From: Bacillota bacterium
GTDB taxonomy: Bacteria > Bacillota > Clostridia > Christensenellales > CAG-138
DNA: 64,000 nt
NCBI GenBank assembly: GCA_023390655.1
Contig: JAEWCL010000015.1
Span: forward strand, 48,946-112,945
Direction of reading: 5' to 3'
Numbering within the stretch: position 1 is the first letter of the stretch; each line of letters begins with the position of its first letter. The notes below the pieces were generated by a model. That model saw only the letters and a list, made by a program, of their open reading frames with translations, was not told where the DNA came from and made no database searches. Position numbers and translations under genes: made by a program. Positions 6,602 through 23,956 of the stretch are shown piece by piece.

Positions 6602-6623
6602 AGAGTTGTTCTAACCCCTAAAA

Positions 6624-6657: not shown

Positions 6658-6784
6658 GTTCCACACTGCAAGTCCTTTCAAACCGCCCCTTTGGGGGAAT
6701 GGGCGGTCCATGATAAGGCTACGTATCCCCGCTTATTACTTTGAGTTTTACGCCCTAATGGGCGATCAGGAAGGGCATTGAACA

Positions 6785-7048
6785 ATGAAACAAAGTGAAA
6801 TTACCATCACCAACGCAAGCGGTCTGCACGCACGGCCCGCTGCCAATGTGATGAAGACAGCCAAACGCTACCAGTCGGACATCCGCATTATCAAGGACGG
6901 TCGTTCCGGAAATGCAAAAAGTTTGGTGGAGATATTAAATCTTGATATTTCACGGGGAGATACCGTCACACTGACCTGCCAGGGCGAGGACGAGGAGGAC
7001 GCGCTTGACGGCGTGAAATCCATGATGGAAAACGACTTTGAAGGCTAA
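6785..7048 (+). CDS. ptsH: phosphocarrier protein HPr
   Basis: 87 aa. It has the GLH(15)ARPA active site and an AKS(46)L HprK-site context. Confidence 0.9.
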   Translation: MKQSEITITNASGLHARPAANVMKTAKRYQSDIRIIKDGRSGNAKSLVEILNLDISRGDTVTLTCQGEDEEDALDGVKSMMENDFEG

Positions 7049-7066
7049 AGTAGCACAGGAGGGCTT

Positions 7067-8788
7067 ATGTTTCAAGGCTGCGGCAATTCCCTGGGCGTTG
7101 CGGTAGGCTATGCGCACATTGTACGCAACCGCTCCATTTCAATAGAAAAGCAGACGGTCTGTGACGCGGAACAGGAAGTGCGTCGGCTGGATGAGGCAAT
7201 CGGCATTGCATGCACTCAGATGGAAGCGTTGCTATTGGAAGCGGAGGCTTCCCTTTCTTCTGATGAAGCGGATATTTTCGAAATGCATCTAGCCTTACTC
7301 GAAGATCCCGGTTATCTTGGCAAAGTACGCGAGCGCATTAGAACGGAACAGGCAAATGCCGAATGGGCTCTGATGGAAGAAACAAGCAGGCTTGTTACTT
7401 CTTTTGGCGAAAAGGGCGATATGCTCAAACAACGCACAGCGGACTTACGGGAAATCGAGCTGCGACTAAGCGACATATTGCTTGACCAACAGCCACAAGC
7501 GACAAAGATGTTGCAGGAGAACAGCATCCTCATCGGAGATGAACTTCTCCCTTCCCAAATTCTAAAGCTTGACGTTACAAAAACAAAAGGCGTAGCAACA
7601 TCGGGCGGCGGCGCAACTTCCCACGCGGCCATTTTGGCAAAAGCGCAGGGAATACCAGCCGTGTTCGGCGCGCAAGGCTTACTTGAGCAGATAACGGACG
7701 GAGACTATGTGATCGTGGATGCGGATACGGGGACCATATACATAAACCCCACAAACGATGTCCTCCTTGCTTATCAAAAGAAAGTGGCTGAACAGGCGCA
7801 GTTATCGGAGTTTGCAAAGGCGTACCGCACCGCACAGGCGGCTACAACGGACGGCAAACGGATTTTGGTAGAGGGCAACATTGCTGGCCCCATGGGTACC
7901 GCATCCGTTCTCGCGGCCGGTGCGGATGGCGTAGGCCTATTCCGGACGGAGTTTCTTTATCTGGAGCGGGATACGCTTCCTGCAGAGGAGGAACAGTTTG
8001 CGTTCTATCTCAAAGCCGTACGCGGCATGCAGGGGTTGCCGCTCGTTATCCGCACACTGGACATCGGTGGAGATAAGCAGGTCTGTTCCCTTGGACTTAA
8101 CCAAGAGGCCAACCCGTTTTTAGGCTACCGCGCCATCCGCATCTGTTTGGATCAGGAGCCGGTGTTCCGCACCCAGTTGCGCGCCATACTACGCGCAAGC
8201 GCGTTTGGCCCGATCTCCATTATGTTTCCCATGATCTCCTGTGTGGAGGAGTTGCGCCAGGCAAAGGCCATTCTAAGCGGCGTACGCGAAGAGCTCCTCC
8301 ACGAGCAAATTCCATTTGACACAAACGTTCCCGTCGGTATCATGGTGGAAACGCCCGCGGCAGCAATGCTTTCCGATCTCTTAGCCCGGGAAGTGGACTT
8401 TTTTAGCATCGGTACCAACGATTTAATCCAATATACCGCCGCAGTGGACCGCATGAACGGGCGTATCGCCCACCTTGCCTCCCCCTATCATCCCGGCGTA
8501 CTGCGGCTGATTGCAAATATCGTATCCGGCGCCGCAAAACAAAGCATTCCCGTTGCGGTCTGCGGGGAGATGGCCGGCGAATTTCCACTGATCCCGCTTT
8601 TAATTGGGTTGGGAGTTGATGCTCTGAGCATGAGCGCATCCCTCATCACAAAGGCAAAGTACATCGTTTGCAATACCCCCTTTCATCAGGCTCAGGGGCT
8701 TGCACAAAGAGCGTTATCCCTTTCTACCGTGCAAGAGTTACGGGAGGCTGTCTCCCTGTTCCACGAAACACTCATTCCCCCTGCGTAA
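7067..8788 (+). CDS. ptsI: phosphoenolpyruvate-protein phosphotransferase (PTS Enzyme I)
   Basis: 573 aa. GGGATSHAAILA is the phospho-His region, and IGTNDLIQYT lies in the PEP-utilising domain. Confidence 0.95.
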   Translation: MFQGCGNSLGVAVGYAHIVRNRSISIEKQTVCDAEQEVRRLDEAIGIACTQMEALLLEAEASLSSDEADIFEMHLALLEDPGYLGKVRERIRTEQANAEWALMEETSRLVTSFGEKGDMLKQRTADLREIELRLSDILLDQQPQATKMLQENSILIGDELLPSQILKLDVTKTKGVATSGGGATSHAAILAKAQGIPAVFGAQGLLEQITDGDYVIVDADTGTIYINPTNDVLLAYQKKVAEQAQLSEFAKAYRTAQAATTDGKRILVEGNIAGPMGTASVLAAGADGVGLFRTEFLYLERDTLPAEEEQFAFYLKAVRGMQGLPLVIRTLDIGGDKQVCSLGLNQEANPFLGYRAIRICLDQEPVFRTQLRAILRASAFGPISIMFPMISCVEELRQAKAILSGVREELLHEQIPFDTNVPVGIMVETPAAAMLSDLLAREVDFFSIGTNDLIQYTAAVDRMNGRIAHLASPYHPGVLRLIANIVSGAAKQSIPVAVCGEMAGEFPLIPLLIGLGVDALSMSASLITKAKYIVCNTPFHQAQGLAQRALSLSTVQELREAVSLFHETLIPPA

Positions 8789-10008: not shown

Positions 10009-10113
10009 ATATTCCATCCTTTTTATGACTCTATTCATTATATTGTACCGCTGGATAGAGCTTGATAAAAGCAAAAATTATATGTATATTTATATGATGA
10101 TCTGGCAAACAGC

Positions 10114-10151
10114 GTTAAGCATGCCTCTGTTTTCGCAGAGGCATGCTTAAC
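10114..10151 (-). terminator. strong hairpin 3' of the GatZ-like gene (putative operon terminator)
   Basis: Perfect 16-bp stem GTTAAGCATGCCTCTG / CAGAGGCATGCTTAAC with a 6-nt loop. On the minus strand it is followed by GCTGTTTGCC, a weak U-tract. Confidence 0.5.
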
Positions 10152-10213
10152 GTTCGCGGGAGATCCCTCAATTCAGAACTTCCTTCTCCGCAAGGAAGAC
10201 CACTGCGAATAAA

Positions 10214-11488
10214 CTAACGATATGTTCTGATTACATCCTTGATGCGCTCTTTAATTAACAGTTCCGCAGATACCTTATTATGAGAAGCAAGAACTTTTTC
10301 TTTTTGCTCGGGGAAATATTGGGATATCAATCCGAACGGAAGCTCTGCCGCATTAATATTTTTTATCAGCCGTGCAATGGATGCTTTTACCTCTCCCTCA
10401 TCAAGATAATACCTGCTTCGATCGCTCAGACTAAATTTGCGCGCATATGCCTTATCCTGACTGCTGCCGTGATAGTATTTTCTCCAGTATTTATCATCAC
10501 TCATCAGCTTTGCCTCAAGAGTATCTCGAAAACAGGAGTACCCTCCAGCCGGTGAAAACGGATATAAGATTTTCTCCATGTCTTCAAGCGCAAACAATGA
10601 CTCACGCAATGCAAACGTCAAAGCGGGTCCCACCTTCAAAATCGCGATGCCGTCTTCCCGCATCTTGGAAAGCAATGCCTTAGGCTGATAGTCCGTTGAG
10701 TGACCTTCAAGTACCAAACCTTCAATATTCTTCGCATATTGCGTGAGTGATTGCGCTTTCTGCGAATCATACTTAATAATTGTATTGTCCGCAAATTCAG
10801 CTCCCGGCTGAACGACGACCGCAATAGTCCGTCCCCATGCATTCGCAAGCCCTTCTCTTATAAACGCATCTTTAAATGCAATCAAAGTAGCCTCCAAGTC
10901 TTGTGGTGATGTGATTGCGATTGAGTCTTCATTCTCTGTTGCACCGCCTGGAATTGGCACTTCGCTTCCAATGACGTACACTGGCTTATTATCCCCGGCT
11001 ACAGCTTCTGCGGCCACACAAAGCCTAGCTGCACGTTTTGCAATAATGCTGTTTGGCAGCCTTTGCGTACTAGAGTCGCTTGCAAGACGCATGCTCGTAT
11101 CCAAATGAATTTTGGAGAAACCTGCAGACACATACTGTCTAATGAGTTCCTCCGCCTTTGCCATGGCAATATCTTCGGTCTCGTTTTGCCAAGTCAGCGG
11201 TCCAAGATGATCTCCACCGACGATAAGCTGTCCCGCATCTAAGCCTACTCGAGTTGCTATACGTTGGACATACTTCATAAAATCCGCAGGACTCATTCCC
11301 GTATATCCTCCGAATTGGTTGACCTGATTTGCCGTAGCTTCAATCAGCACTACCAAACCGTTATCCTGGCCATCCTCCATCGCCGCTTCAAGTACAAGCT
11401 CATTTGCACTACAAATGGAACAGATCCCCACACTAGATCCTCTTTTTTGAGCTTGGATGAGATTACGAAAGTATTCGATCGTATCCAT
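10214..11488 (-). CDS. GatZ/KbaZ/AgaZ-family protein (tagatose-phosphate epimerase or aldolase-accessory type)
   Basis: Trimmed to ATG 11488 (AAGGAG upstream). VGICSICSAN...VLIEATANQVNQFGGYTGMSPADF matches the GatZ/KbaZ N-terminus. Confidence 0.85.
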   Translation of the reverse strand: MDTIEYFRNLIQAQKRGSSVGICSICSANELVLEAAMEDGQDNGLVVLIEATANQVNQFGGYTGMSPADFMKYVQRIATRVGLDAGQLIVGGDHLGPLTWQNETEDIAMAKAEELIRQYVSAGFSKIHLDTSMRLASDSSTQRLPNSIIAKRAARLCVAAEAVAGDNKPVYVIGSEVPIPGGATENEDSIAITSPQDLEATLIAFKDAFIREGLANAWGRTIAVVVQPGAEFADNTIIKYDSQKAQSLTQYAKNIEGLVLEGHSTDYQPKALLSKMREDGIAILKVGPALTFALRESLFALEDMEKILYPFSPAGGYSCFRDTLEAKLMSDDKYWRKYYHGSSQDKAYARKFSLSDRSRYYLDEGEVKASIARLIKNINAAELPFGLISQYFPEQKEKVLASHNKVSAELLIKERIKDVIRTYR

Positions 11489-11496
11489 ATTACTCC

Positions 11497-12507
11497 TTAC
11501 TGTACAATGGTCCCGTCCAGATCCCAGAGATCCTTCCAATCGTTTGCACCAGGCCAGAGAAATACCTGTCCTTTGATAAGGCGGCAGTTTCGGTCTACGC
11601 CTTTGAGAATTTCCATTTCGGCATCGCTAAGCGGATCTTCAGTTACGCACCTGAGATTACTCGTATACTCGTGTTCTTTGATCGAAAACGGAATTGGCGT
11701 CTGGCCACGCTGCACCGCCCACTTGATGCAAATAATGGCTGGATGCACGCCATGTGCGTGCGCAATCTGCACAAGCTCCGGTATTTGGATATCAACAACA
11801 TCATCCGCCGTTTTGTCGCGGTCCGGGCGGGTGGGCGAACCAATCGGGCAAAATCCAATGGGCTGGATATTATGCCTTTTCACATAATCAAACAGCTCCG
11901 GTTGCTGAAAGCTGGGATGCAGTTCCATTTCAATCGCAGCGGGCTTAATCTTACACAAGGGCAATACCGCTTCCAGTTTCGGGATGGTCATATTGGACAT
12001 GCCAATATAGCGGGTAAGTCCCATTTCAACGAGCCGTTCGCACTGATGCCACGTTTGCATAAAGCGTTCGACCGAGAAAGGCCTTGAATTGGGATTTCTG
12101 GAATCGCCGTCACAGCCAGGAGCGTGGTAGTTGGCAAACGGCCAATGCACAAAAAACAAGTCCAAATAGTCAAGCCGCAGCTCCTTAAGGCTTTTTGCGC
12201 AGGAAAGCAACACATCGCCCCTGCCATGCATATCGTTCCAAACCTTTGTGGTAATAAACAGTTCTTCACGCCTAACAATCTCGTTGTCAAACGCATCTTG
12301 GAACACATTGCCGATCCTATCTTCATTCTCGTATACCGCAGCGCAATCAAACATGCGATAACCCACCTTGATTGCACCGGATACGGCAGATGATACTTGC
12401 TCTGGCGTAAATCGATCGGATCCAAAAGTTCCCATCCCAATGCAAGGCATCTTGCCACCATCAAACAACGTTCTCTGCATCACTTTCTTGGGGTCAATAA
12501 ATTCCAT
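11497..12507 (-). CDS. aldo/keto reductase
   Basis: Motifs seen: GMGTFG, FDCAAVYENE, LDYLDLFFVHWP. Confidence 0.85.
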   Translation of the reverse strand: MEFIDPKKVMQRTLFDGGKMPCIGMGTFGSDRFTPEQVSSAVSGAIKVGYRMFDCAAVYENEDRIGNVFQDAFDNEIVRREELFITTKVWNDMHGRGDVLLSCAKSLKELRLDYLDLFFVHWPFANYHAPGCDGDSRNPNSRPFSVERFMQTWHQCERLVEMGLTRYIGMSNMTIPKLEAVLPLCKIKPAAIEMELHPSFQQPELFDYVKRHNIQPIGFCPIGSPTRPDRDKTADDVVDIQIPELVQIAHAHGVHPAIICIKWAVQRGQTPIPFSIKEHEYTSNLRCVTEDPLSDAEMEILKGVDRNCRLIKGQVFLWPGANDWKDLWDLDGTIVQ

Positions 12508-12522
12508 TTGCCTTTCCCTCCA

Positions 12523-13572
12523 TCATAAGTTGTTTACCAACAAAATTTTCCCGTTGACCGCGCCTGGCGTTTTAAAGAGTTGAAATGCTTCCTGTGCTCG
12601 GCTCATCGGGAGGCGTTCCCCGATAAGTCCCTCATCGAATTTTAACTTGCCCTGGGCATAATACTCCGCCGTCATACTCCACTCCTTGCCGGGAAACGGG
12701 GCACTGTAGCTCATCCAGGAGCCAGTGAGCTTAAACTCCTTACGGTTCATGTTCTCCCACTCCGCTGGTGTAAAGCTCAATTCGGTGTGTGGTGTTCCTA
12801 TAAAGCAAACCTGCGATTTATTGGCGGCAAGCTTGAATGCGATTTTCATAGTTGCGGTCACGCCCGCAGTCTCAAATACATAGTCGAACCCGCTGCCTCC
12901 GCAGATATCCATTGTGCGATTCATGGAATCCTCTTCACGTGTATTGACCGTGCCGTCAGCCCCCAAGCGTTTTGCAAGTTCCAGCCGGCTGTCACTAATA
13001 TCAAACGCAATTACTTTTTTTGCTCCGAGAAGCTTTGCCCACTGCAATGTAAAAATACCGATCGTTCCCATGCCCAATACAGCGACCGTACCGCCTCCGC
13101 AGAATTCGTTCTGCAGCAGGCCGTGCAGCGCGATCGTGGATGGTTCAAACATAGCTCCCTGCTCAAAAGAGATGGATCGGTCAAATATTACTGCGTTTCG
13201 TTCGGGGATGACAATATAATCCGCATTGCTCCCCTGCTGCCGGGATCCTATGAAGCTGTAGTGCTTGCAAAGTGAATAATTTCCAATCTGGCAGTCCCCG
13301 CAAACCATACACGGGAGCAGCGGCACGCCCGAGACCCTGTCACCCACCTTCACCTTTGTCACGCCCGCGCCAACTTCCACGACTTCACCCGCAAATTCGT
13401 GCCCCAGTACAATCGGGTAAAAATGCACGCCATTGTAGAGCACACGCGGGATATCCGAGCCGCATATACCAGAAACGGCCACTTTTACCTTGATTGTTCC
13501 GTCCGTTACCTGAGGTTCCTCCATATCCAGATACTGAACGTCCTCATTCGCCACAACGACAGCTGCCTTCAT
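12523..13572 (-). CDS. zinc-dependent polyol(-phosphate) dehydrogenase, galactitol-1-P/sorbitol dehydrogenase-like
   Basis: Motifs seen: GICGSD, GHEFAG, CMVCGDCQIGNYSLC, VAVLGMGTIG. Confidence 0.85.
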   Translation of the reverse strand: MKAAVVVANEDVQYLDMEEPQVTDGTIKVKVAVSGICGSDIPRVLYNGVHFYPIVLGHEFAGEVVEVGAGVTKVKVGDRVSGVPLLPCMVCGDCQIGNYSLCKHYSFIGSRQQGSNADYIVIPERNAVIFDRSISFEQGAMFEPSTIALHGLLQNEFCGGGTVAVLGMGTIGIFTLQWAKLLGAKKVIAFDISDSRLELAKRLGADGTVNTREEDSMNRTMDICGGSGFDYVFETAGVTATMKIAFKLAANKSQVCFIGTPHTELSFTPAEWENMNRKEFKLTGSWMSYSAPFPGKEWSMTAEYYAQGKLKFDEGLIGERLPMSRAQEAFQLFKTPGAVNGKILLVNNL

Positions 13573-13580
13573 TTTTTACC

Positions 13581-15092
13581 TCACCGACTCATCAAATTTT
13601 TTAACGCGGCATAAAGCTCGCGATATGTTTCGTAGCCACGGTCATATTCGGCCTTGCGCGCATTATCCGGCTCATGTCTTCTCTTTAGCTGAACTGTTTC
13701 TTCAACCGCTTGGTCGAAGTCTCTGTACATGCCCACACCAACACCGGCAAGAAGTGCCGCCCCCAACGTTGTGGCAGTATCCGAAGCCGGAATCTCAATG
13801 GGCTTTCCGGTAACGTCGGATTTGATTTGTGTCCAAATCAGCGAGTTCGCGGCACCGCCCATGGACCGCATTGTCCAAACCGAAGCGCCCGCCTGAGAAG
13901 CAATCTCAAGGTTATGTCGCAGCGAATATGCCACGCCTTCCATGACTGCGCGCACCATGTGTGCCTTCGTCTTGGAATAGTCCAACCCATAAAACTGTCC
14001 TTTTGCTTTTTCATCCCAAATTGGCGAACGCTCGCCGGCCATATAGGGCAGAAATATCATGCCTTCGCTGCCGGCGGGCACTGTAGCGGCCAACATTCCG
14101 AGCCGCTCAAACGCGGAACCGCCTTCTGCCACCGCGCTCTGTTTTTCTTCAAAACCAAACTGATCCTGAAACCAGCGTAACGCACCACCACCTCCCGTTG
14201 TGCCTCCTTGCAGCAACCATCTTCCCGGAACCACATGAAAACTTAAAATAAGCCTTGGATCTGCGCAGTACTGTTTTAGACAAATGCTCAGCCCTCCGGC
14301 CTGCCCGCCCTGCTCTTGCGTCTGACCCTCATGGAGTACACCGGCACCTAGCGTACCGCAGGCGGCATCGAGTCCGCCGGCGATAACCGGCGTTCCTTCT
14401 TTAAGTCCCATTTTTTGAGCTGCGCTTAACGAAAGCTTACCGACGACCTCTTCACAGGCCACAATTTCAGGCAAAAAACCGGCTTTTATTCCAAGGGAAT
14501 CGCGCATTCTATCATCCCAGCGTCCCTTTTTCATGTCAAAGCAATGCAACCCATAGCCTTGGGAGATATCCTGTGTTATCGCACCTGTCATGCGGAACAC
14601 AATAAAGCTGTTGGATTGGAGTATTTTATCAATTCTTCGGTATGTATCAGGCAGGGTTTCTTTATACCAGATAATTTTTCCAGTTGTGTACTGAGCCTTG
14701 AGGGGATTCCCACTTACGGAAAAGAGCTCTTCCGCCCCTATGGTTTCGTTTAATTTCCTACAGATCGCCTCACTGCGCGTATCCATCCAAATCGGATTTC
14801 GGGTGAGCACTTCTCCTTGGCTATCGATTGCAATTGCTGCCCAGCTCTGTCCGTCCACACCAATGCCTGCAATATCTCCTGGATTGATAGCACTATTTTC
14901 AATGAGCCTTTTAGTACCGCTGCAAACTGCCGCCCACCAATCGTCTGGCTCCTGCTCAGCAAAACCCGGTGCAGGATAAAAAATCGGATATTCTTCTGTA
15001 GCAGTACCCACAACTTTTCCGTCACGCTCAAAAATTGCAATCTTGCACGCACTGGTTCCGATATCTATGCCCAATAGTAATTCTCTCGGCAT
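13581..15092 (-). CDS. FGGY-family carbohydrate kinase (xylulokinase-like)
   Basis: LLGIDIGTSACKIAIF N-terminus, a 503-aa two-domain length, and GGAANSLIWTQI near the C-terminus. Confidence 0.9.
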   Translation of the reverse strand: MPRELLLGIDIGTSACKIAIFERDGKVVGTATEEYPIFYPAPGFAEQEPDDWWAAVCSGTKRLIENSAINPGDIAGIGVDGQSWAAIAIDSQGEVLTRNPIWMDTRSEAICRKLNETIGAEELFSVSGNPLKAQYTTGKIIWYKETLPDTYRRIDKILQSNSFIVFRMTGAITQDISQGYGLHCFDMKKGRWDDRMRDSLGIKAGFLPEIVACEEVVGKLSLSAAQKMGLKEGTPVIAGGLDAACGTLGAGVLHEGQTQEQGGQAGGLSICLKQYCADPRLILSFHVVPGRWLLQGGTTGGGGALRWFQDQFGFEEKQSAVAEGGSAFERLGMLAATVPAGSEGMIFLPYMAGERSPIWDEKAKGQFYGLDYSKTKAHMVRAVMEGVAYSLRHNLEIASQAGASVWTMRSMGGAANSLIWTQIKSDVTGKPIEIPASDTATTLGAALLAGVGVGMYRDFDQAVEETVQLKRRHEPDNARKAEYDRGYETYRELYAALKNLMSR

Positions 15093-15094
15093 TT

Positions 15095-15541
15095 TTACTT
15101 GACAACTCCTTTTTGAATCATGACATTTGCATAAATTGCTTCCTCACCTGATTGGACAATACAATAGGATTTTTTTGCTTCCTTATAAAATTCAAATCTA
15201 TCTAGGAAGCCGATGATTGCTTCCCCGCGCACATCGTGCCGGGTTGCGATACTTTTATATTCATCCCAAATAGGAATTGCGAGATCGCGGTCACATTCCA
15301 TTGTTTGCATCAATTTGATGGGCTGTTCAATATATGCGTCACACGGAATTACTTTTAAAATAGCCTCAAGCAACTCCGTGCCGGGAATGCCGTCCATACG
15401 CAGGAACTTACAGCCTCCTTCCGCCGCAAACCGTTTTCCAGGAAAATTCGCATCTCCAATGACAATGACATCACTATGTCCCATTTCACAAAGCACGGAC
15501 AATAGTTCAGGTGAAAGAAGTTTTGGCATTCCCAACAGCAT
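15095..15541 (-). CDS. RbsD/FucU-family sugar mutarotase (FucU-like)
   Basis: LLSPELLSVLCEMGHSDVIVIGDANFP closely resembles the N-terminus of E. coli FucU. Confidence 0.85.
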   Translation of the reverse strand: MLLGMPKLLSPELLSVLCEMGHSDVIVIGDANFPGKRFAAEGGCKFLRMDGIPGTELLEAILKVIPCDAYIEQPIKLMQTMECDRDLAIPIWDEYKSIATRHDVRGEAIIGFLDRFEFYKEAKKSYCIVQSGEEAIYANVMIQKGVVK

Positions 15542-15594
15542 CGGTTATACTCCTTTTCTGTCAATAAAAACCCGTTAACAGCCGACCTAAGATT

Positions 15595-15623
15595 GGGGGG
15601 GCAGCTAGCATTTACTGCCCCCC
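15595..15623 (-). other. intercistronic stem-loop immediately 3' of the SBP gene
   Basis: GGGGGGGCAG...CTGCCCCCC, a 9-bp GC stem located 14 nt after the SBP stop. Confidence 0.45.
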
Positions 15624-15636
15624 AGGATCAAGTTTT

Positions 15637-16788
15637 CTATTCGTAGAGCAACGGTGCAATTTTCGGATCATCCATGTTCTCGCTGGTATAATACTGGCAG
15701 CCTGTGTCCACAAGAGGCTCAACCTTTTCGCCGTTGAGGGTCTTGACGGCAAGTTCAACCGCGTAATAACCAATCATATAAGGATCTTGGGTAACAGCGC
15801 CGTGGAACCATTTGTTCTTGACTGCGTTAAGTAAGGTCGCGCCAGAGTCAAAGCCAACGACAGTGATGTCCTTGTAACGGCCATTTTCACGGTCAAGGTC
15901 GGAACCGTCCGCAGTTGCAGCCAACATTCCATCAACAGAACCGGAATTGGTGCAGAAGACACCAAGCGGGGCTCTTTGAATGACGGCCTGTGCAGCAGTC
16001 TGGCAGTCGGTAACGTTTGTAGACGCAGCGATGGAGACAAGAATTTCAACCGCCATATCGCCAGAGCTGGAAGCTTTATTCCACTTATCATGGCCAGTTA
16101 CAGCGACGAGACCAGGTTGTGCGGCATCACAAAGTTCGAACATCTTATCAACAAACCCTGTTGTACGGCCAGTAATAGAAGCTGACGTCGCATCCTGACT
16201 TATAACAGCAATCACGACAGGCTTATCCTTTGTTGCAGCTTTGATGGCTGCACCGATGGATTCAATCTTGAACATGGTATCGGCCGCAAGCGCACCTGCA
16301 GCTTCATTATCCGTAGAAGCCGTAGATACGATTGAGCCTTGGGGAGCATTTGGAACGCCCGAGTCAAAACCAATTACCGGAATATTCTTGCTCATGCAGG
16401 CATTCAGCTGCTCAGTCACGGATTCGGTATCAAGCGCAGCAAGGCACAGCGCAGCAGGGTTCTTTGCAAGAACAGCATTGAGCATGTCAACCTGGATGTT
16501 GATGTCGGACTCCGAAGGCGGTCCGTCAAATGTGAAATCGACATTGTACTTTTCCGCGGCATCTTTCGCACCCAATTGTACGGTCTGCCAGAATTTATGC
16601 TGGAACCCTTTGGAGATGATCGCAATGTAAGGTTTCCCGGCAGCGGGTTCAGGTTCCGTTGTCTCTGCCGTGGTGGGAGCAGGAGCAGGGGTAGGTTCTG
16701 TGGAAGTAACCGGGGTCTGCGGTGCCGCGCACGCCGCCATCGAGAGTACCATGGCAAACGCAACCAGCAATGCCCAAGCCTTCTTCAT
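15637..16788 (-). CDS. ribose/galactose-type (PBP-I) sugar ABC substrate-binding lipoprotein
   Basis: Signal peptide with lipobox (LSMAAC), a Pro/Thr/Ala/Glu linker, and a PBP-I-like body. Confidence 0.85.
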   Translation of the reverse strand: MKKAWALLVAFAMVLSMAACAAPQTPVTSTEPTPAPAPTTAETTEPEPAAGKPYIAIISKGFQHKFWQTVQLGAKDAAEKYNVDFTFDGPPSESDINIQVDMLNAVLAKNPAALCLAALDTESVTEQLNACMSKNIPVIGFDSGVPNAPQGSIVSTASTDNEAAGALAADTMFKIESIGAAIKAATKDKPVVIAVISQDATSASITGRTTGFVDKMFELCDAAQPGLVAVTGHDKWNKASSSGDMAVEILVSIAASTNVTDCQTAAQAVIQRAPLGVFCTNSGSVDGMLAATADGSDLDRENGRYKDITVVGFDSGATLLNAVKNKWFHGAVTQDPYMIGYYAVELAVKTLNGEKVEPLVDTGCQYYTSENMDDPKIAPLLYE

Positions 16789-16862
16789 AATGTGGTCCTC
16801 CTTTAATAATGTTTTTATATCCCGGGATGCCCGGAATTCATATGCAAAAGGACGAAAGGGGG

Positions 16863-17837
16863 CTAGAATTTTTTCAGCTTGTTACTTTGACGGATACGGT
16901 ACTGGTCCAAAAGAACCGCGCCAATCACAACCGCGCCTGTAAAAAACGTTTGCCAGTGGCTTTGCAGGCCCATAGACATGAGCCCCTGCTTAAGAACACT
17001 CATAATAAACACACCAATGATCGTACCTATAAGCGTGCCGGTACCACCGCTCATACTAGTACCGCCTATTACAACGCCCGCAATCCCCAAGAGTTCCTGC
17101 CCGTTACCGGTAGAAGGAATAATCGAAGTATACACGGCCGCATACATAATCCCCGCCAAACCACTGCAAAATCCGCAGAATGTATAAATTGATGTAAGCC
17201 AGGGACGTATTTTAATTCCGGAAAGGCGTGCCGCCTCACTATTGGAGCCGATTGCAAATGTATACCGCCCAAACCTTGTTTTGTTTAGCAGAACGAACGC
17301 AATCAGAAAGAAAACCAGCAGCCAGGCTGCACCTAGTGGAATACCGCTCGTCGTTTTATAAAACACATTTTTAAACCAGCCATCGGCTGTTCCGAATGTA
17401 GGGTAGCGCATTGTCTGGACTTTTGTGACGATAGCCCCAAATCCCATACCCATCATCATCATGCCAAGCGTGGCAATAAAGGGGGGCAGCTTCAAATAGG
17501 CAATCAGCAAGCCGTTCAGGAACCCGATAAACGTTGCAAGCGCGACCACAAGAAGCAGGCACCAACCCATTGGCCAATGAAGAACGTTATAAGCAGCACC
17601 GCCGACCAAGGCAGCACACATCATTGTGGTTCCGAGCGAAAGATCAATCCCTCCGGTAATGATGACAAACGTGACGCCAATTGCCATAAATCCGATATAG
17701 TAGGAGCCATCAAGAATATTAATCAGATAATCTGTGGAAAAAAAGTTTTTACCGAAGATGGAGAAGAACATATACAGAATTACCAATACCGCCGGGGCCA
17801 GGAACTTTGTAATATCAATTTTCTTTTTGCTATTCAT
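16863..17837 (-). CDS. sugar ABC transporter permease (RbsC-like, CUT2)
   Basis: 324-aa polytopic protein with a GGIDLSLG motif. Confidence 0.9.
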   Translation of the reverse strand: MNSKKKIDITKFLAPAVLVILYMFFSIFGKNFFSTDYLINILDGSYYIGFMAIGVTFVIITGGIDLSLGTTMMCAALVGGAAYNVLHWPMGWCLLLVVALATFIGFLNGLLIAYLKLPPFIATLGMMMMGMGFGAIVTKVQTMRYPTFGTADGWFKNVFYKTTSGIPLGAAWLLVFFLIAFVLLNKTRFGRYTFAIGSNSEAARLSGIKIRPWLTSIYTFCGFCSGLAGIMYAAVYTSIIPSTGNGQELLGIAGVVIGGTSMSGGTGTLIGTIIGVFIMSVLKQGLMSMGLQSHWQTFFTGAVVIGAVLLDQYRIRQSNKLKKF

Positions 17838-17848
17838 TCAAGTATCCC

Positions 17849-19339
17849 TCACATATTCATAGTTGCCAGTGACATGATCTTTTCCTGCGTTACATCGGCT
17901 ATATCAAGTTCGCCTGTTATGCAGCCCTCGCGCATTACAATGAGCCGATCGCTCATGCGCAGCAATTCAGGCATCTCGGACGAGATCATAATAATCGACT
18001 TCCCCTCTTCAGCAAGCGAATTCATCAGCTTATAAATCTCCTGCTTGGCCCCCACATCGATCCCGCGCGTAGGTTCATCAAAAATCAGGATGTCGCTATT
18101 TCGAATCAACCACTTGGAAACGACCACTTTCTGTTGGTTGCCGCCCGAGAGATTCTTGACGAGCTGCTTTGAAGACGGGGTTTTAATGCCAATTTTTTTG
18201 ACGAATTCATCGGATATCTTTTCAATCTTTGTGTCATTTGTGAAGGGACCAAACATGAACTGTTCCAAACTCGCCATCACACAGTTATCTCGGACGCTTA
18301 AATTAACGGCTAAGCCCAGCGCTTTTCTGTCTTCTGACAGGTAGCAAATGCCGTTTTTAATTGCATCGCTGGGAGATTTAATGCTGACCTTCCTGCCATT
18401 TATGATGATCTCCCCTCCGGTTGCCGTATCCGCACCAAACAATGCGCGCATGGTCTCGGTACGCCCGGCCCCCATAAGACCTGCGAAGCCGAGAATTTCT
18501 CCTTTTCTTAATTCAAAAGAAACATCCTTTACGTTGTTTCCTATGAGATGCTTTACTTGCAGCACGACCGGAGCATCCGGAGGCACATTGCTCCTCGTCT
18601 TTGGTTCCTCATAAATCGTGCGTCCGACCATCATACTGATGATTTCTTCTTTTGTAGTAGCATTTGTATCAACCGTACCTACATATTGGCCGTCACGCAT
18701 CACCGTAATACGGTCGCTGATTTGCGCAAGCTCATCTAGACGATGTGAGATATATACGATTCCATGCCCCTTATCCTTCAAACCGCGAATTACTTTGAAG
18801 AGTTCCTGAATTTCATTTTCAGTCAGCGCTGCAGTGGGTTCATCCATAATAAGCAACTCGCTCTCATAAGAAAGCGCCTTTGCGATTTCCACCATTTGCT
18901 GCTTTGCGACGGTCAACCTTCCTGCTGGGATCGTCGGCTCAATGCTCACATTGAGGGCATTTAGCATTTCTCGCGCTTGCTTGTTTTCACTTATCTGATC
19001 TATAAACATCCCTCGTTTGGGTTCTTTTCCGATAAAGATATTCTGCGATACCGTAAGATGGGGCATCAAATTCAGTTCCTGGTGAATAATGCCGATTCCC
19101 ATTTCTTGCGCATGCAGTGGGTCCGTAGGCTCAATTTCTTTTCCACGCAACTTTATGGATCCGGCATCCTTTGTGTAGATACCGGACAAGATTTTCATCA
19201 GCGTGGACTTTCCTGCTCCATTTTCGCCCACGAGTGCAAGTACCTCCCCTTTGTTTACACAAAGAGAGGCGTTATCCAATGCGTGAACGCCCGGAAAGTA
19301 CTTTTGAATCCCCGTCATTTCAAGCAATACTTCAGCCAC
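17849..19339 (-). CDS. sugar ABC transporter ATP-binding protein (two NBDs, RbsA-like)
   Basis: Walker A GENGAGKST, signature LSGGNQQK, and a duplicated NBD. A GTG start at 19339 after AAGGGA is preferred over the track's TTG at 19357. Confidence 0.9.
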   Translation of the reverse strand: MAEVLLEMTGIQKYFPGVHALDNASLCVNKGEVLALVGENGAGKSTLMKILSGIYTKDAGSIKLRGKEIEPTDPLHAQEMGIGIIHQELNLMPHLTVSQNIFIGKEPKRGMFIDQISENKQAREMLNALNVSIEPTIPAGRLTVAKQQMVEIAKALSYESELLIMDEPTAALTENEIQELFKVIRGLKDKGHGIVYISHRLDELAQISDRITVMRDGQYVGTVDTNATTKEEIISMMVGRTIYEEPKTRSNVPPDAPVVLQVKHLIGNNVKDVSFELRKGEILGFAGLMGAGRTETMRALFGADTATGGEIIINGRKVSIKSPSDAIKNGICYLSEDRKALGLAVNLSVRDNCVMASLEQFMFGPFTNDTKIEKISDEFVKKIGIKTPSSKQLVKNLSGGNQQKVVVSKWLIRNSDILIFDEPTRGIDVGAKQEIYKLMNSLAEEGKSIIMISSEMPELLRMSDRLIVMREGCITGELDIADVTQEKIMSLATMNM

Positions 19340-19477
19340 AATGGTATCCCTTCTCAATTGAATTGTATTGAAATTGTTTTAATGAATTATTCCGATCAGC
19401 ACACCTTATCGCGAATTGCTTAATATTAATTATATTGTTGGGAAATTTGTTGTCAACGAATAACGATTAAATAAATA

Positions 19478-19491
19478 TTGAAACGTTTTAC
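19478..19491. promoter_or_regulatory. candidate LacI-type operator (CG-centred pseudo-palindrome)
   Basis: TTGAAACGTTTTAC, with 5 of 7 half-site symmetry. It is one of three ATTGAAA heptamers in the divergent intergenic region (the others start at 19367 and 19522). Confidence 0.35.
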
Positions 19492-19615: not shown

Positions 19616-21850
19616 ATGAGCACAATCAAAGATGTCGCAAACCATTCAGGGGTATCTATTGGAACCGTGTCCAATTATCTCACCGGTACCAAGCATGTTC
19701 ACCCTGAGACAGCAAAAAAAATAAAACTTGCTATTGATGCGCTGGACTACAAACCTAATTCATACGCAAAGAATTTACGAACAAACTCCAATAGAGAAAT
19801 TGGTGTAGTTTTGCCAAACACAAGCGAGCAATACTATGCATTTTTATTGACCGGAATTGAGGCGGAATTAAAAAAGGCCGGATATTATCTCAATCTTGCC
19901 CTTTCTAACGATGTGCCGGAAACCGAAAAAATGATCATCGGCAACTTTATGAAGAAGAATATCAGCGGTTTGATTGTGATGTCCTGTCAACACAATACCG
20001 AATTCTATGATCAGATTACAAAGACGCCCATTTTGTTTATTGACCGAAAGGTCACCTCTTCTGATGCAAATTTCGTCTCTTTTGATCAATACAACACCAT
20101 GTCATTTTTGATGTCACAGCTGACCGAACGCGGCTGCGAAAGAATTGCTCTCGTTGCTGGTCCGGAGCAATTTTCTTGTGAACGTGAATACGCCCAAGCC
20201 TATCGCGATTATTACAAAGCGCGCGGCGAAGATGCAGATGAAAAATGTATCTTTCACATCAACATGACAAAAGAGGAGGCATTTCGCACCGGCATCTCCC
20301 TTTTTCAGGACGTGGAGCCTCAAGCAATTATATCCACATCACGCATGCTGACAAACGGCTTGGAACATGCAGCGAGCTTGGCAGGAATTTCTTTGTACAA
20401 CGATATTGTTATGATATCTATTGGCCAAGAAACATTCTCCAACTTTTTAAAATATAACAACATCATTGTTACTATGCGTCCAGCCAACTACCTCGGAGTG
20501 AAGGCCGCCCGTTTACTCTTGTCTAATATTGATAGCCCTCTGATGTTTGAAAAGCAGCAAATCATATTGGAAGATAAAATTGTCGGCAAAAGGCTTTTTG
20601 AATCCATAAAAGCAGTACCCGTAACGCTTCCGGCAGCGAAGCAAAGGCTGCGTGTATTGTTTCTTGATTCCCCCAACGCGCACGGAATTATTCGTACGCA
20701 TTCAGTTTTTACCAGGAAAACAGGCATTGATGTTGATGTGACACTCTGCGAGCATGGCACACTACTTTCTAAATTAATGGATAAAGAATACCTCTCCAAC
20801 TTTGATGTTTGCATGTACGATAACCCTTGGCTAGACATCCTTGTTGCAGAAGACTTGTTTTTGGATATTACGAGTTATGTCGACTCGGATACGATTGATA
20901 CCTCCACCTTCCTGACAGGACTTTTGGAGAAAGTTGGCTATGTAGGCGGAAAATATTTCGGGATTCCTTTTCTTTTCGGCCCACAACTGCTGCTTTACCG
21001 CCGCGACCTATTTGAAAACCCTCATATGTGCGATCTTTTTGAAAAGAAATATCGCGAGAAGTTGCGCGTTCCGCGCACTTGGTTTGAGTTCAACGTTGTA
21101 AGCAGCTTCTTCACCCGCACCCTGAATCCCAATTCGCCCGTGGAGTTCGGTACATCATTTTCAGCACGTAACGCCGCAACGCTGCTCCCCGAGTTGATGC
21201 CCCGCGTTTGGGCCTACAATAGCAACATCTTTGATAGCGAGGGTATCCCTATTGTCTCTTCAACCTTATTTAAAAAGGGCGTTAGCAGCCTTGTCGAGGC
21301 ATTTAATTATGCGCCTCCACAAACTCTGACCTATAGTGTCGAAAACACTGTTGAGGACTTTTATCTCGGCAAAACAGCAATGCTAGTCAGTTTTGCATCT
21401 TTCATTGCTGACGTTAACAATACTGCAAAGTCTAAGATAATTGGGAAAATAGGCTACGCAAATATTCCAGGGAACTGCTCTGTTCTTGGCAGCTGGGGCC
21501 TCGCCATTCCCTCATCTAACGGGAATCCCTCTGCCGCCTATGAATTCATTCGGTGGACATGTGATCCCGATATGAGTAGCTATTTTGCCATCTTGGATGG
21601 CCAATCGCCGCTTAAGAATGTTTACACAAACGACGAGCTGGCAAACCACTATCCATGGCTGCCATTAATATACAAAACATTTTCCGGGAACAAGCAGCGA
21701 AAATCAGTTAAGCGCAAGGACGGGACGCTGATTCCAATCACATTAATTGAGGCTTTGATTTATGAGCAGATAATGAAGATTATAACTCAAGACATTTCGA
21801 TTGACGATGCTCTGGCCGGACTGAACGAACAGCTGGCAGCACTAATGTAG
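19616..21850 (+). CDS. LacI-family regulator fused to a C-terminal ABC family-1 solute-binding-protein-like domain
   Basis: Trimmed to ATG 19616 (744 aa). It has an HTH_LacI (MSTIKDVANHSGVSIGTVSNYL), a PBP-I core, then an SBP-like region (GIDVDVT, PRTWFEF, GKIGYANIPG, AYEFIRWTCDP). There is no signal peptide or TM segment. Confidence 0.8.
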   Translation: MSTIKDVANHSGVSIGTVSNYLTGTKHVHPETAKKIKLAIDALDYKPNSYAKNLRTNSNREIGVVLPNTSEQYYAFLLTGIEAELKKAGYYLNLALSNDVPETEKMIIGNFMKKNISGLIVMSCQHNTEFYDQITKTPILFIDRKVTSSDANFVSFDQYNTMSFLMSQLTERGCERIALVAGPEQFSCEREYAQAYRDYYKARGEDADEKCIFHINMTKEEAFRTGISLFQDVEPQAIISTSRMLTNGLEHAASLAGISLYNDIVMISIGQETFSNFLKYNNIIVTMRPANYLGVKAARLLLSNIDSPLMFEKQQIILEDKIVGKRLFESIKAVPVTLPAAKQRLRVLFLDSPNAHGIIRTHSVFTRKTGIDVDVTLCEHGTLLSKLMDKEYLSNFDVCMYDNPWLDILVAEDLFLDITSYVDSDTIDTSTFLTGLLEKVGYVGGKYFGIPFLFGPQLLLYRRDLFENPHMCDLFEKKYREKLRVPRTWFEFNVVSSFFTRTLNPNSPVEFGTSFSARNAATLLPELMPRVWAYNSNIFDSEGIPIVSSTLFKKGVSSLVEAFNYAPPQTLTYSVENTVEDFYLGKTAMLVSFASFIADVNNTAKSKIIGKIGYANIPGNCSVLGSWGLAIPSSNGNPSAAYEFIRWTCDPDMSSYFAILDGQSPLKNVYTNDELANHYPWLPLIYKTFSGNKQRKSVKRKDGTLIPITLIEALIYEQIMKIITQDISIDDALAGLNEQLAALM

Positions 21851-23952: not shown

Positions 23953-23956
23953 ATCA

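Follow-up and report, generated by a model that had tools for sequence, protein, structure and literature searches.

A conserved bacterial cassette proposed to carry an aldohexose through D-tagatose-6-phosphate to fructose-6-phosphate

Eight co-directional minus-strand genes and a divergent regulator make up a conserved cassette in the window (the whole 64-kb stretch of DNA analysed here). We consider it reasonably likely that the cassette serves the regulated uptake and catabolism of an aldohexopyranose, which would be reduced and re-oxidised on a detour to D-tagatose-6-phosphate and finally become fructose-6-phosphate (F6P). The sequence-only reading had proposed that an aldose becomes an alditol, then a ketohexose phosphate and, through a stand-alone GatZ-like protein, F6P; that core idea stands, carried by interchangeable pathway endings (n=28) and invariant catalytic residues, while several details are corrected below. 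Our literature search found no paper describing the route. If the proposal is true, a symmetric alditol intermediate would shift a sugar from the L to the D series.

Operon, regulatory region and conservation

Our computations here cover gene content, conservation of genes and residues, and interchangeable endings. The ORF listing and Pfam/NCBIfam scans confirm an eight-gene operon at 10214-19339 with the families first assigned to it, and confirm that no class II aldolase, isomerase or PTS gene lies inside (Table 1). The ATPase starts at a GTG at 19339 preceded by GAGAAGGG, and the gaps from there to the GatZ-like gene are 11, 74, 95, 2, 8, 15 and 8 nt, so that an earlier description of gaps of mostly 2-15 nt fits five of the seven but not the 74- and 95-nt gaps. 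The whole 64-kb window encodes no intact GatY-type aldolase, PfkB/LacC kinase, FucI or FucK, its class II aldolase being a 73-aa remnant only (53193-53411); GatY or PfkB genes could lie in genomic regions beyond it.

Table 1. Features of the cassette and its regulatory region, in window coordinates
Feature	Position	Strand	Basis
ABC transporter ATPase, CUT2-type sugar, two ABC domains	17849..19339	-	PF00005 twice
ABC transporter permease	16863..17837	-	PF02653 (BPD_transp_2), 148 bits
Lipoprotein solute-binding protein (SBP), CUT2	15637..16788	-	PF13407 (Peripla_BP_4), lipobox
FucU-type sugar mutarotase (RbsD/FucU)	15095..15541	-	PF05025
FGGY kinase, xylulokinase-like	13581..15092	-	FGGY_N + FGGY_C
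Zn-MDR dehydrogenase (ZnDH), NAD+-type, GatD-like	12523..13572	-	41% identity to E. coli GatD
Aldo-keto reductase (AKR)	11497..12507	-	PF00248
GatZ/KbaZ-family protein, ATG at 11488	10214..11488	-	PF08013, 551 bits
Divergent regulator, 744 aa, LacI-SBP fusion	19616..21850	+	Pfam LacI, Peripla_BP_1/3, SBP_bac_1/8
Putative LacI-type palindromic operator TAAAACGTTTCA	19479..19490		family consensus TGAAACGWTTCA
Operon promoter TTGACA-16-TATAAT	19456..19429	-	12/12 consensus match
Operon-terminal hairpin, 17-bp perfect stem	10113..10152	-	arms 10113-10129 + 10136-10152, 6-nt loop

The regulator, likewise annotated at 744 aa in public contigs, joins a LacI HTH and a type-1 periplasmic-binding-protein sensor to a C-terminal type-2 SBP domain (SBP_bac_1), whose closest match in the PDB is 5iai ("Sugar ABC transporter", 76 bits) and which also matches 4rya ("(Sorbitol)"). 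In every window-type locus, and also in Flexilinea, the regulator is conserved in divergent orientation to the cassette. The operator palindrome, the single such site across the 64-kb window, precedes the -35 hexamer by 23 bp. Each of the 11 orthologous intergenic regions compared has the palindrome on the upstream side of its -35, in some cases twice, and equivalent TTGACA/TATAAT elements can be seen in the orthologous regions. Regulator and conserved palindrome belong to the operon unit, and we propose that the LacI-SBP protein binds the TGAAACGWTTCA palindrome beside the promoter. At the other end, the hairpin noted earlier exists, although its stem is 17 bp rather than 16; the folding energy of the region is -51.8 kcal/mol (z = -5.0), the T-tail is weak, and a terminator scan made no call there. 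The M19 dipeptidase gene downstream of it is not conserved among relatives.

Ten Bacillota/Christensenellaceae MAGs have the regulator and all eight genes in unchanged order, with amino-acid identities of 70-85%. The arrangement also recurs in Chloroflexota and in less closely related Bacillota, far exceeding chance. The cassette thus spans two phyla, with a variant in Blautia faecis, a common human-gut species. This occurrence, together with at least 581 metagenome stretches encoding relatives of the AKR, speaks against an earlier view of the route as unusual for bacteria.

Interchangeable endings

To the core of AKR, dehydrogenase and kinase, different genomes attach different endings. Among 28 dereplicated relatives with this core, 12 carry GatZ only and eight carry PfkB with GatY; the others have GatZ with GatY (three), GatY only (three), PfkB only (one, on a short contig) or no ending that we found (one). 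GatZ and PfkB occur together in none of the 28. In Flexilinea, whose SBP (82%), permease (82-85%), AKR (77-78%) and ZnDH (71-72%) are closely related to those of the window, a PfkB protein (TIGR03168, 341 > 216) and a GatY-subfamily aldolase (389 > 383) replace the GatZ-like protein, and locus L112, with a regulator 75% and an ATPase 82% identical to the window's, also ends in PfkB and aldolase. The PfkB of these variants is a 1-PFK/LacC-type kinase and the aldolase a GatY-type class II enzyme (44-48% identity to GatY). Epimerisation by GatZ and the PfkB + GatY pair are the two textbook fates of tagatose-6-phosphate. Since the two mutually exclusive endings correspond to these fates, tagatose-6-phosphate is likely to be the node of the pathway.

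Enzymes, substrate and alternative readings

From these data we infer catalytic activities, cofactor, substrate and regulatory logic. In the proposed first steps, the CUT2 ABC transporter would bring in a free sugar and the mutarotase would equilibrate its anomers. The ATPase scores 538-602 bits against the RbsA, XylG and AraG models, each time under the equivalog cut-off; the SBP, 82% identical in Chloroflexota cassettes, reaches no equivalog in the NCBIfam scan. Its PDB relatives are 4kqc (219 bits), 4rxt (106), which we take to be a D-arabinose binder, and 4wut (87), which contains D-fucose. By its matches the mutarotase is FucU-type, neither RbsD nor GalM: it scores 89 bits on the L-fucose mutarotase model versus 37 on D-ribose pyranase, and among structures 152 bits on B. 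longum FucU, 122 on mouse FucU, 78 on E. coli FucU and 26 on RbsD. FucU lies within 11 kb of the core in 21 of the 28 clusters, and a 293-aa Aldose_epim protein takes its place in some cassettes, including that of Anaerocolumna.

We propose that the AKR is the entry step, reducing C1 of the aldose to give an alditol, most likely meso-galactitol. The D/Y/K/H tetrad is present, and identity is 68-89% across Bacillota and Chloroflexota. Lys262 and Arg268 of AKR1B1, which bind the 2'-phosphate of NADPH, are Phe and Glu in the window's enzyme and in 13 of 13 orthologs checked, so that the cofactor is probably NADH; the label "fungal-style" previously given to the route is therefore doubtful as regards cofactor use. 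Among solved structures, plant sugar-6-phosphate reductases come closest to the AKR, though narrowly (203 versus about 180 bits). Taken with the phosphorylated-alditol relative of the ZnDH, these relatives mean that the textbook order of steps, and even the substrate of the AKR, could differ. The AKR is also found without the core, beside FucU and another MDR or GH31, and may have a second or different role.

L-galactose, entering through meso-galactitol, is our tentative choice as the likeliest physiological substrate, suggested by the FucU-type mutarotase and repeated linkage to FucI and FucK genes; D-altrose, with identical C2-C4 configuration, is the alternative. FucI and FucK lie about 40-110 nt 3' of the GatZ-like gene on the same strand in L004, L008, L009 and L032, FucI alone in L005, where the contig stops, and both after the regulator in L113 and flanking the Blautia faecis variant. 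L-fucose metabolism proteins take L-galactose, and the FucU and FucI families act on L-fucose and D-arabinose (PMC13406643). A preceding list of candidates (galactose, galactitol, altritol, talose, tagatose) is thereby narrowed towards L-galactose, which it had not singled out.

The same pathway may instead serve D-galactose, an imported hexitol or D-tagatose, with the FucU homolog as a general mutarotase, but we judge this unlikely. Meso-galactitol erases D/L origin, hence the downstream enzymes would be blind to the source sugar, and the D-fucose binder among the SBP relatives, the Aldose_epim protein of Anaerocolumna and the GH31 gene in one AKR-FucU context (a family generally active on alpha-D-glycosides) are all consistent with such a substrate. 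D-galactose, however, is normally handled by the Leloir pathway, the mutarotase is FucU-type and widely kept in core clusters, FucI and FucK are joined to operon or regulator in several lineages, and importing a hexitol or tagatose would leave the strongly conserved AKR and FucU pointless. Precedents from alphaproteobacteria do use galactitol, D-altritol and D-tagatose (PMC9720028).

On the preferred L-galactose route, the GatD-like NAD+ dehydrogenase would oxidise the former aldose C5 and the XylB-like FGGY kinase would phosphorylate the hydroxyl of the former C1, in either order giving D-tagatose-6-phosphate. The ZnDH scores 318 bits on the GatD model (cut-off 550; next family 194) and 261 bits on PDB 4a2c (next structure 141), and its orthologs keep the catalytic C/H/E, the four structural Cys and the Asp after GxGxxG. 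Its nearest family, galactitol-1-phosphate 5-dehydrogenase (GatD), works on a phosphorylated alditol, oxidising L-galactitol-1-phosphate at C5; phosphorylation may therefore come before oxidation, and we propose either galactitol or L-galactitol-1-phosphate, oxidised at C5, as the substrate. The dehydrogenase-then-kinase order first suggested is thus one of two possible orders. The kinase reaches 376 bits on TIGR01312 XylB (cut-off 380.25) against only 128 on the fuculokinase model, and its top PDB match is E. coli XylB (230 bits). It is proposed to be a D-tagatose 6-kinase or a galactitol kinase; by stereochemical reasoning, the D-threo terminus expected for a XylB-like enzyme matches both tagatose and galactitol. 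Kinase and ZnDH genes adjoin wherever gene positions were read, and both lie near the AKR in 28/28 core clusters. On Thermoclostridium-like contigs the kinase (67% identity), ZnDH (75%) and GatZ-like protein (67%) occur with AKR and FucU absent, which suggests that these three behave as an alditol-to-F6P module.

In the last step, the GatZ-like protein, a proposed D-tagatose-6-phosphate 4-epimerase, would epimerise C4 by a metal-dependent retro-aldol/aldol reaction. It falls under the GatZ/KbaZ equivalog cut-offs of NCBIfam and matches PDB 2fiq (376 bits) and 3txv (328 bits); C20, E44, D87, H88, E171, H257 and K279, all the proposed catalytic and metal residues of the family, are invariant. 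Placement in an epimerase or an accessory clade, as once envisaged, is not borne out, since no split is visible at 42-47% identity to E. coli GatZ (47%), E. coli KbaZ and S. meliloti TagE (42%) alike; TagE is described as a T6P epimerase (PMC9720028).

In a rival reading that shares the route up to tagatose-6-phosphate, the GatZ-like protein would instead assist, as partner or chaperone, a GatY-type tagatose-bisphosphate aldolase whose gene lies elsewhere; a general phosphofructokinase would make tagatose-1,6-bisphosphate, which, following the E. coli gat pathway, would be cleaved to DHAP and G3P. We estimate this reading to be quite unlikely. In a clade at 63-65% identity (L019-L022), a 284-aa class II aldolase lies directly 3' of the GatZ-like gene, is 44-46% identical to E. 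coli GatY and has a tagatose-bisphosphate aldolase subfamily as its top NCBIfam match, so the idea of a GatZ without GatY holds for the window's clade and not for its sister clades. The three GatZ + GatY clusters, the aldolase remnant and the restriction of our view to 64 kb of the genome point the same way. Against this, no aldolase or PfkB gene lies within 10 kb in 11 window-type loci or in the 64-kb window, and the nine clusters with a PfkB ending all lack a GatZ-like protein; the aldolase would thus work without GatZ, which appears to replace the PfkB-aldolase pair rather than to help it. The full set of catalytic residues also argues for the epimerase, as does the activity of GatZ proteins alone: it is reported for E. 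coli GatZ and KbaZ (PMC11907403), and an in-vitro enzyme cascade relies on T. indiensis GatZ alone to go from F6P to T6P (PMC11807042).

We regard it as very unlikely that the AKR is a lactaldehyde or L-glyceraldehyde reductase for L-fucose/L-galactose catabolism via FucI, FucK and FucA, and that the FGGY-ZnDH-GatZ triad is a separate hexitol module merely sharing the operon. In Anaerobium acetethylicum and L102 the AKR does stand beside FucI, FucK and FucU with the triad absent, its conservation is much above that of its neighbours, and the Thermoclostridium-like contigs have the triad without it. Yet AKR and FucU stay in the operon of a 64-kb window that has no FucI, FucK or FucA, PF00596 FucA was not seen in any locus with annotated genes, the AKR sits between ZnDH and ending enzymes in most genomes sampled, and this reading needs two unrelated jobs to share a single transporter and a single regulator, which is less parsimonious.

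A route for a pentose or a 6-deoxyhexose, with another reaction for the GatZ-like protein (D-arabinose via D-arabinitol and D-xylulose to xylulose-5-phosphate, or L-fucose via L-fucitol) would suit the kinase, barely under the xylulokinase cut-off, the sugars of the FucU and FucI families and the presumed D-arabinose binder 4rxt, but is highly improbable, since xylulose-5-phosphate requires neither GatZ nor PfkB + aldolase, one such ending being present in 27/28 core clusters, and the 1-deoxy-ketose arising from a 6-deoxy sugar could not be phosphorylated at C1 by a 1-PFK/LacC-type PfkB kinase.

Comparison with known systems

For the catabolic enzymes, the closest characterised homologs are three proteins of the E. 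coli gat operon (GatD 41%, GatZ 47%, and GatY 44-48% for the variant-cassette aldolase), and tagatose-6-phosphate would be common to both routes. Where gat uses a galactitol PTS, however, the window has an ABC transporter and a soluble FGGY kinase; gat has GatY, whereas the window lacks it and would exit by epimerisation to F6P; and the proposed entry substrate is an aldose reduced by the AKR.

The D-altritol/galactitol system of A. tumefaciens C58 and S. meliloti tagABCDE share with the window CUT2-type ABC uptake, a tagatose-6-phosphate node and a GatZ/KbaZ-family exit to F6P with no adjacent GatY (PMC9720028; S. meliloti locus L018). S. meliloti TagE is 42% identical to the GatZ-like protein, with all catalytic residues in common, whereas the window's FGGY/XylB-like kinase contrasts with the tagatose kinase of that cluster, the 313-aa PfkB protein TagD. 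Unlike these systems, the window encodes a GatD-like Zn-MDR dehydrogenase within its operon; the dehydrogenases of the A. tumefaciens pathway are presumably members of other families. The window also adds AKR and FucU in front, hence its substrate would be an aldose and not an alditol or ketose, and cassettes of its type occur in anaerobic Bacillota and Chloroflexota under a LacI-SBP fusion regulator. The D-tagatose cluster of E. coli Nissle 1917 and the B2 phylogroup likewise combines ABC uptake with a tagatose-6-phosphate intermediate (PMC9720028), and its phosphofructokinase and class II TBP aldolase resemble the PfkB + GatY ending of L029, L031, L084, L112 and L113; but AKR, dehydrogenase, FGGY kinase and FucU are all absent from this cluster of ABC transporter, tagatose kinase and TBP aldolase, whose substrate is D-tagatose itself.

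In fungal oxidoreductive D-galactose pathways, as proposed for the window, an AKR reduces the aldohexose to galactitol, which is re-oxidised to a ketose with no isomerase (yeasts, PMC11067038). A mutarotase is associated in both, but the window's AKR lacks the NADPH 2'-phosphate Lys/Arg, so that its route probably escapes the imbalance between NADPH and NADH typical of fungi. The window's genes also form a bacterial operon with ABC uptake, the product would be routed through tagatose-6-phosphate and a GatZ epimerase or TBP aldolase, and the likely substrate is the L enantiomer. Bacterial routes for L-galactose itself reportedly include an oxidative pathway in Bacteroides vulgatus and non-phosphorylative pathways, the latter listed among the references of PMC13406643. 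As the window's cassette would, these handle an analogue of L-fucose, and genes of the L-fucose type are associated with them too; but they oxidise C1 to L-galactonate, whereas the route proposed here would reduce C1 and end in a glycolytic hexose phosphate.

Operon architecture and a divergent regulator

The eight co-directional minus-strand genes described in the sequence-only reading are all borne out by Pfam and NCBIfam profiles, and in operon order are separated by gaps of 11, 74, 95, 2, 8, 15 and 8 nt. The promoter ahead of them matches the consensus 12/12, and a perfect hairpin follows the last gene, with a stem of 17 bp and not 16 bp as first read. The operon contains no aldolase, isomerase or PTS gene, and across the whole 64-kb window we found no intact GatY-type aldolase, PfkB/LacC-type kinase, FucI or FucK. 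An M19 dipeptidase gene was ruled out as an operon member, as it lies 3' of the hairpin and is not conserved in relatives.

Cassette genes, control elements and other sugar-related features of the window
Feature	Positions	Strand	Evidence or remark
PTS-containing sugar cluster	37-8788		
DhnA-type class I aldolase	2071-2925		
Zn-ADH	2906-4021		
Enzyme I	7067-8788		
Terminal hairpin	10113-10152		
GatZ/KbaZ-family protein	10214-11488	-	PF08013, 551 bits
Aldo-keto reductase (AKR)	11497-12507	-	Pfam/NCBIfam
Zn-dependent medium-chain dehydrogenase (ZnDH)	12523-13572	-	Pfam/NCBIfam
FGGY kinase	13581-15092	-	Pfam/NCBIfam
RbsD/FucU-family protein	15095-15541	-	Pfam/NCBIfam
Lipoprotein CUT2 solute-binding protein (SBP)	15637-16788	-	Pfam/NCBIfam
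Permease	16863-17837	-	Pfam/NCBIfam
Two-domain sugar ABC ATPase	17849-19339	-	Pfam/NCBIfam
Promoter	19456..19429		
Palindrome TGAAACGWTTCA	19479-19490		single occurrence in window
LacI-SBP fusion regulator	19616-21850	+	744 aa
GH31 cluster	21943-29786		
Second AKR	52127-53017		
Class II GatY/FbaA-type aldolase remnant	53193-53411	-	73 aa, C-terminal
GH65-like gene	53501-56038		called by reading sequence alone, not by profile

The cassette is larger than initially described, since it includes a divergently transcribed regulator in which a LacI helix-turn-helix and PBP1 (type-1) sensor domain are fused to a complete C-terminal type-2 SBP domain (SBP_bac_1). This regulator accompanies the operon, always divergent, in the window and in every relative where that side can be read (comparison loci such as L013, L019, L021, L031, L112 and L113), and belongs to a small family, with 108 matches at E <= 1e-30. 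Because a type-1 sensor is joined to a complete type-2 SBP domain, this cytoplasmic protein may sense two ligands. In every orthologous intergenic region the palindrome is found immediately 5' of the -35 element.

Convergent with the regulator lies a cluster encoding a GH31 hydrolase, two CUT1 permeases, an SBP, a histidine kinase and an AraC-type response regulator. We rejected this cluster as a supplier of the cassette's substrate, because it has its own histidine kinase and response regulator and is not at that place in L113, the one relative in which the far side of the regulator is readable; a FucK-like gene and FucI, not GH31, are found there.

The window holds further sugar genes. A separate cluster at its start combines a minus-strand PucR-type regulator, a class I aldolase and a Zn-ADH with mannose-type PTS IIA, IIB, IIC and IID, HPr and Enzyme I. 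Toward the other end, an apparently decayed class II aldolase remnant sits between a large GH65-like gene and a second AKR. G+C content is about 0.41-0.47 at 18-40 kb and climbs to 0.55-0.60 at 50-64 kb, and parts of the window may thus be of mosaic origin.

Alternative endings behind a conserved front end

Tracing the cassette through its AKR gave 96 AKR loci in 53 dereplicated clusters, 28 of which have the full FGGY, ZnDH and AKR core. The enzymes that follow this core, its ending, vary: 12 of the 28 core clusters have a GatZ-like gene only, and eight a PfkB kinase plus a GatY-type aldolase. GatZ with GatY and GatY only each account for three clusters, PfkB only for one (on a short contig), and in one more no ending was found; GatZ and PfkB are never combined (0/28).

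Two relatives illustrate the exchange. The Flexilinea (Chloroflexota) cassette has an orthologous regulator and ATPase, and resembles the window closely in its permease (82-85% identity), SBP (82%), FucU (71-72%), FGGY kinase (67-68%), ZnDH (71-72%) and AKR (77-78%); in place of the GatZ-like gene it has two others, encoding a PfkB kinase of the 1-PFK/LacC subfamily and a class II aldolase scoring above the threshold of the GatY subfamily model. Module shuffling is visible in L112 (ENA ERZ27268923 k141_78290), a close relative, where uptake and regulator genes 74-82% identical to those of the window (regulator 75%, ATPase 82%) stand with a Lachnospiraceae-type catabolic block of GatY, FGGY (55%), ZnDH (56%), PfkB and AKR (75%).

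D-tagatose-6-phosphate (T6P) has two established fates: epimerization to fructose-6-phosphate (F6P), or phosphorylation followed by aldol cleavage. That both are used, mutually exclusively, behind the conserved front end is strong evidence, at the level of gene content, that this front end makes T6P. By the same token, the mutual exclusivity of GatZ and PfkB endings provides strong, though indirect, evidence that the GatZ-like protein acts as the exit enzyme in the window. If so, natural operons show GatZ-type proteins and the PfkB + GatY pair as interchangeable exits, which bears on the long-standing question of GatZ/KbaZ function.

The GatZ-like protein matches PF08013 over its full length (residues 25-440 of the long ORF aligned to positions 2-415 of the 420-position profile). 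When it was aligned with seven Firmicute homologs, E. coli GatZ and KbaZ, and S. meliloti TagE, the metal and catalytic residues proposed for the family (PMC11907403) proved invariant in the window protein: Cys20, Glu44, Asp87, His88, Glu171, His257 and Lys279 in E. coli GatZ numbering. It falls below all three NCBIfam equivalog cut-offs (TIGR02810, 494 versus 569 bits; NF011626, 444 versus 579; NF012002, 453 versus 707). Placement against epimerase and accessory clades, suggested by the sequence-only reading as a check, yielded no split, the protein having a similar identity of 42-47% to S. meliloti TagE and to both E. coli proteins, GatZ and KbaZ.

The earlier claim of a GatZ without GatY stands for the operon, for the 64-kb window and for 10 kb around the 10 closest relatives, but fails in a clade at 63-65% identity (L019-L022), where a GatY-like aldolase directly follows the GatZ-like gene. 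As in the S. meliloti comparison locus, the window gene has an ABC transporter and a sugar kinase as neighbors and no aldolase. Members of the family are known to work in this way: GatY is dispensable in vivo for the epimerase activity of E. coli GatZ and KbaZ (PMC11907403), GatZ of T. indiensis alone provides the epimerase step of an in vitro enzyme cascade (PMC11807042), and S. meliloti TagE is a GatZ-family epimerase that functions without GatY (PMC9720028).

A minimal module of FGGY kinase, ZnDH and GatZ-like protein, lacking both AKR and FucU, occurs in Thermoclostridium-like contigs and fits the idea of an alditol-to-F6P core to which an aldose front end was added. In L014-L016, contigs of this type, the neighbors of the triad are an SDR gene and three or four PF12831 FAD-oxidoreductase genes, joined in L014 by a CUT1 ABC system; this context suggests another source of alditol or ketose.

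Front-end enzymes and the order of steps

The AKR, 68-89% identical across phyla, is the most conserved member of the cassette. It has the catalytic tetrad Asp-Tyr-Lys-His, and all orthologs keep the motifs FDCAAVY, TKVWN and VHWP. The residues that bind the NADPH 2'-phosphate in AKR1B1 (Lys262 and Arg268; IPKS...R) are replaced by Phe and Glu (IPFS...E) in the window and all 13 orthologs, from which we infer that the enzyme prefers NADH; the reduce-then-oxidize detour would then be redox-neutral. AKR and polyol dehydrogenase are both present and co-conserved in an operon that lacks an isomerase.

The cassette is abundant: no fewer than 581 metagenomic stretches encode relatives of the AKR, and a protein identical to the Blautia faecis AKR turns up on at least 1000 contigs. 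Clustered at 90% identity, the Blautia faecis AKR (L084:10001-11008) is grouped with 309-aa "1-phosphofructokinase" proteins, probably a clustering artefact from the adjacent PfkB gene.

The AKR also occurs with FucI, FucK and FucU outside the FGGY/ZnDH core. In a second context, seen in L111 (7718-14044) and also in L088, L095, L100 and L105, an AraC regulator, a different 386-aa Zn-MDR, AKR and FucU stand together, with none of the FGGY, GatD-like or GatZ genes; the AKR here is of the same family (68% identity), and L111 additionally has a GH31 gene. Together, AKR and FucU may serve a broader purpose or another one.

The putative mutarotase (PF05025, 124 bits) is of the FucU type, scoring 89 bits on the L-fucose mutarotase model NF011949, below its equivalog cut-off of 141, against 37 on the ribose pyranase (RbsD) model, and 78-152 bits against FucU proteins in the PDB versus 26 for RbsD. 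It is kept in 21 of the 28 core clusters; one lineage has an Aldose_epim protein in its place.

The nearest characterized relative of the ZnDH is E. coli galactitol-1-phosphate 5-dehydrogenase, GatD (41% identity), which is also its best match in the PDB (4a2c, 261 bits versus 141 for the next). It scores 318 bits on the GatD model NF007642, short of the cut-off of 550, with the next family at 194. The zinc sites are intact and the NAD+-type Asp is present: GICGSD, GHE, four Cys and the 'FD' after GxGxxG are kept in 14 orthologs. The FGGY kinase is xylulokinase-like, borderline below the TIGR01312 cut-off (376.0 versus 380.25 bits) and far from that of the E. coli-type XylB model (255 versus 912). 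TagD, the PfkB-type tagatose kinase, matches nothing in the window or in window-type loci.

These assignments leave two orders of steps about equally likely. Oxidation first is favored by alphaproteobacterial precedent and because polyol dehydrogenases are commonly partnered by an FGGY ketose kinase. Phosphorylation first, via L-galactitol-1-phosphate, is favored because the dehydrogenase is GatD-like and, more broadly, because GatD, GatY and GatZ are the nearest characterized homologs of three cassette enzymes. This kinship suggests that the cassette is a gat pathway in which the PTS was replaced by ABC uptake and a kinase.

Candidate substrate and relation to known pathways

We propose that the sugar would be taken up and its anomers equilibrated, after which the AKR would reduce C1 to give an alditol; oxidation of the former C5 and phosphorylation of the former C1 hydroxyl would yield D-tagatose-6-phosphate, and C4 epimerization would lead to F6P. 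Reduction at C1, oxidation at C5 and phosphorylation at O1 together have the regiochemistry of the GatD reaction.

Several features link the cassette to L-fucose metabolism. In L004, L008, L009 and L032, FucI, its identity backed by Pfam, and a fuculokinase-like gene lie within about 40-110 nt 3' of the GatZ-like gene and share its strand; in L005 only FucI precedes the contig end. The FucK-like and FucI genes of L113, a Flexilinea flocculi-like locus, follow the regulator on its strand, and the Blautia faecis variant is flanked by FucI and FucK-like genes. As a rule, L-fucose metabolism proteins also accept L-galactose and D-arabinose, sugars with the same C2-C4 configuration (PMC13406643). 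By stereochemical reasoning, only L-galactose and the rare D-altrose within this L-fucose-like group would give D-tagatose-6-phosphate by the proposed route. On the strength of the FucU-type mutarotase, the FucI/FucK linkage and this stereochemistry, we place L-galactose first among substrates, a choice we hold with somewhat less than even confidence.

The main alternative is that the substrate is D-galactose, galactitol or tagatose. Because galactitol is symmetric, the aldose itself would be encountered by the SBP, mutarotase and AKR alone; the mutarotase is FucU-type, and solved structures are too distant from the SBP to decide its ligand (best match 4kqc; 4wut holds D-fucose). A route for L-fucose or another 6-deoxyhexose is ruled out, since PfkB, the alternative ending, depends on a hydroxyl at C1 and a 1-deoxy-ketose cannot be phosphorylated there. 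A pentose or D-arabinose route is ruled out because xylulose-5-phosphate needs no ending enzymes.

Returning to L-galactose, our overall proposal, tentative and somewhat doubtful as a whole, is that the cassette encodes a dedicated and undescribed bacterial pathway for L-galactose (possibly D-altrose), a widespread companion of L-fucose use among anaerobes of the gut and of digesters, Blautia faecis included. An NADH-adapted aldose reductase would produce symmetric galactitol, which would be oxidized and phosphorylated from the opposite end, so that an L sugar would become D-tagatose-6-phosphate while avoiding the L-glyceraldehyde that L-fucose enzymes would produce; the finish, depending on the lineage, would fall either to a GatZ 4-epimerase on its own or to PfkB together with GatY.

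L-galactose occurs in pectin RG-II, in certain xyloglucans and in galactans of red algae, and this would be the first phosphorylative route for it. Bacteria use galacto-configured sugars through the Leloir pathway, LacAB or gat routes; a reductive, redox-neutral entry into the T6P node would be a third way. The NADH-type AKR, GatD-like dehydrogenase and epimerases could, if the proposal holds, serve tagatose or rare-sugar production. Because the cassette occurs in cultured strains, namely Blautia faecis, Anaerocolumna sp. MB42-C2 and apparently Flexilinea flocculi (included through a regulator listed under that name in a public collection), the prediction is directly testable.

In full-text literature searches we found no published description of the cassette. 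It shares the T6P node and GatZ exit with the ABC, tagatose-kinase and T6P-epimerase clusters of A. tumefaciens and S. meliloti, enzyme ancestry with the E. coli gat operon, and reduce-then-oxidize logic with fungal oxidoreductive galactose pathways; the E. coli Nissle tagatose cluster is also among the closest known systems. Unlike all four, the cassette combines an FGGY kinase, a GatD-like dehydrogenase, an AKR deficient in the NADPH site and a FucU front end with a LacI-SBP fusion regulator, linkage to fucose genes and modular alternative endings.
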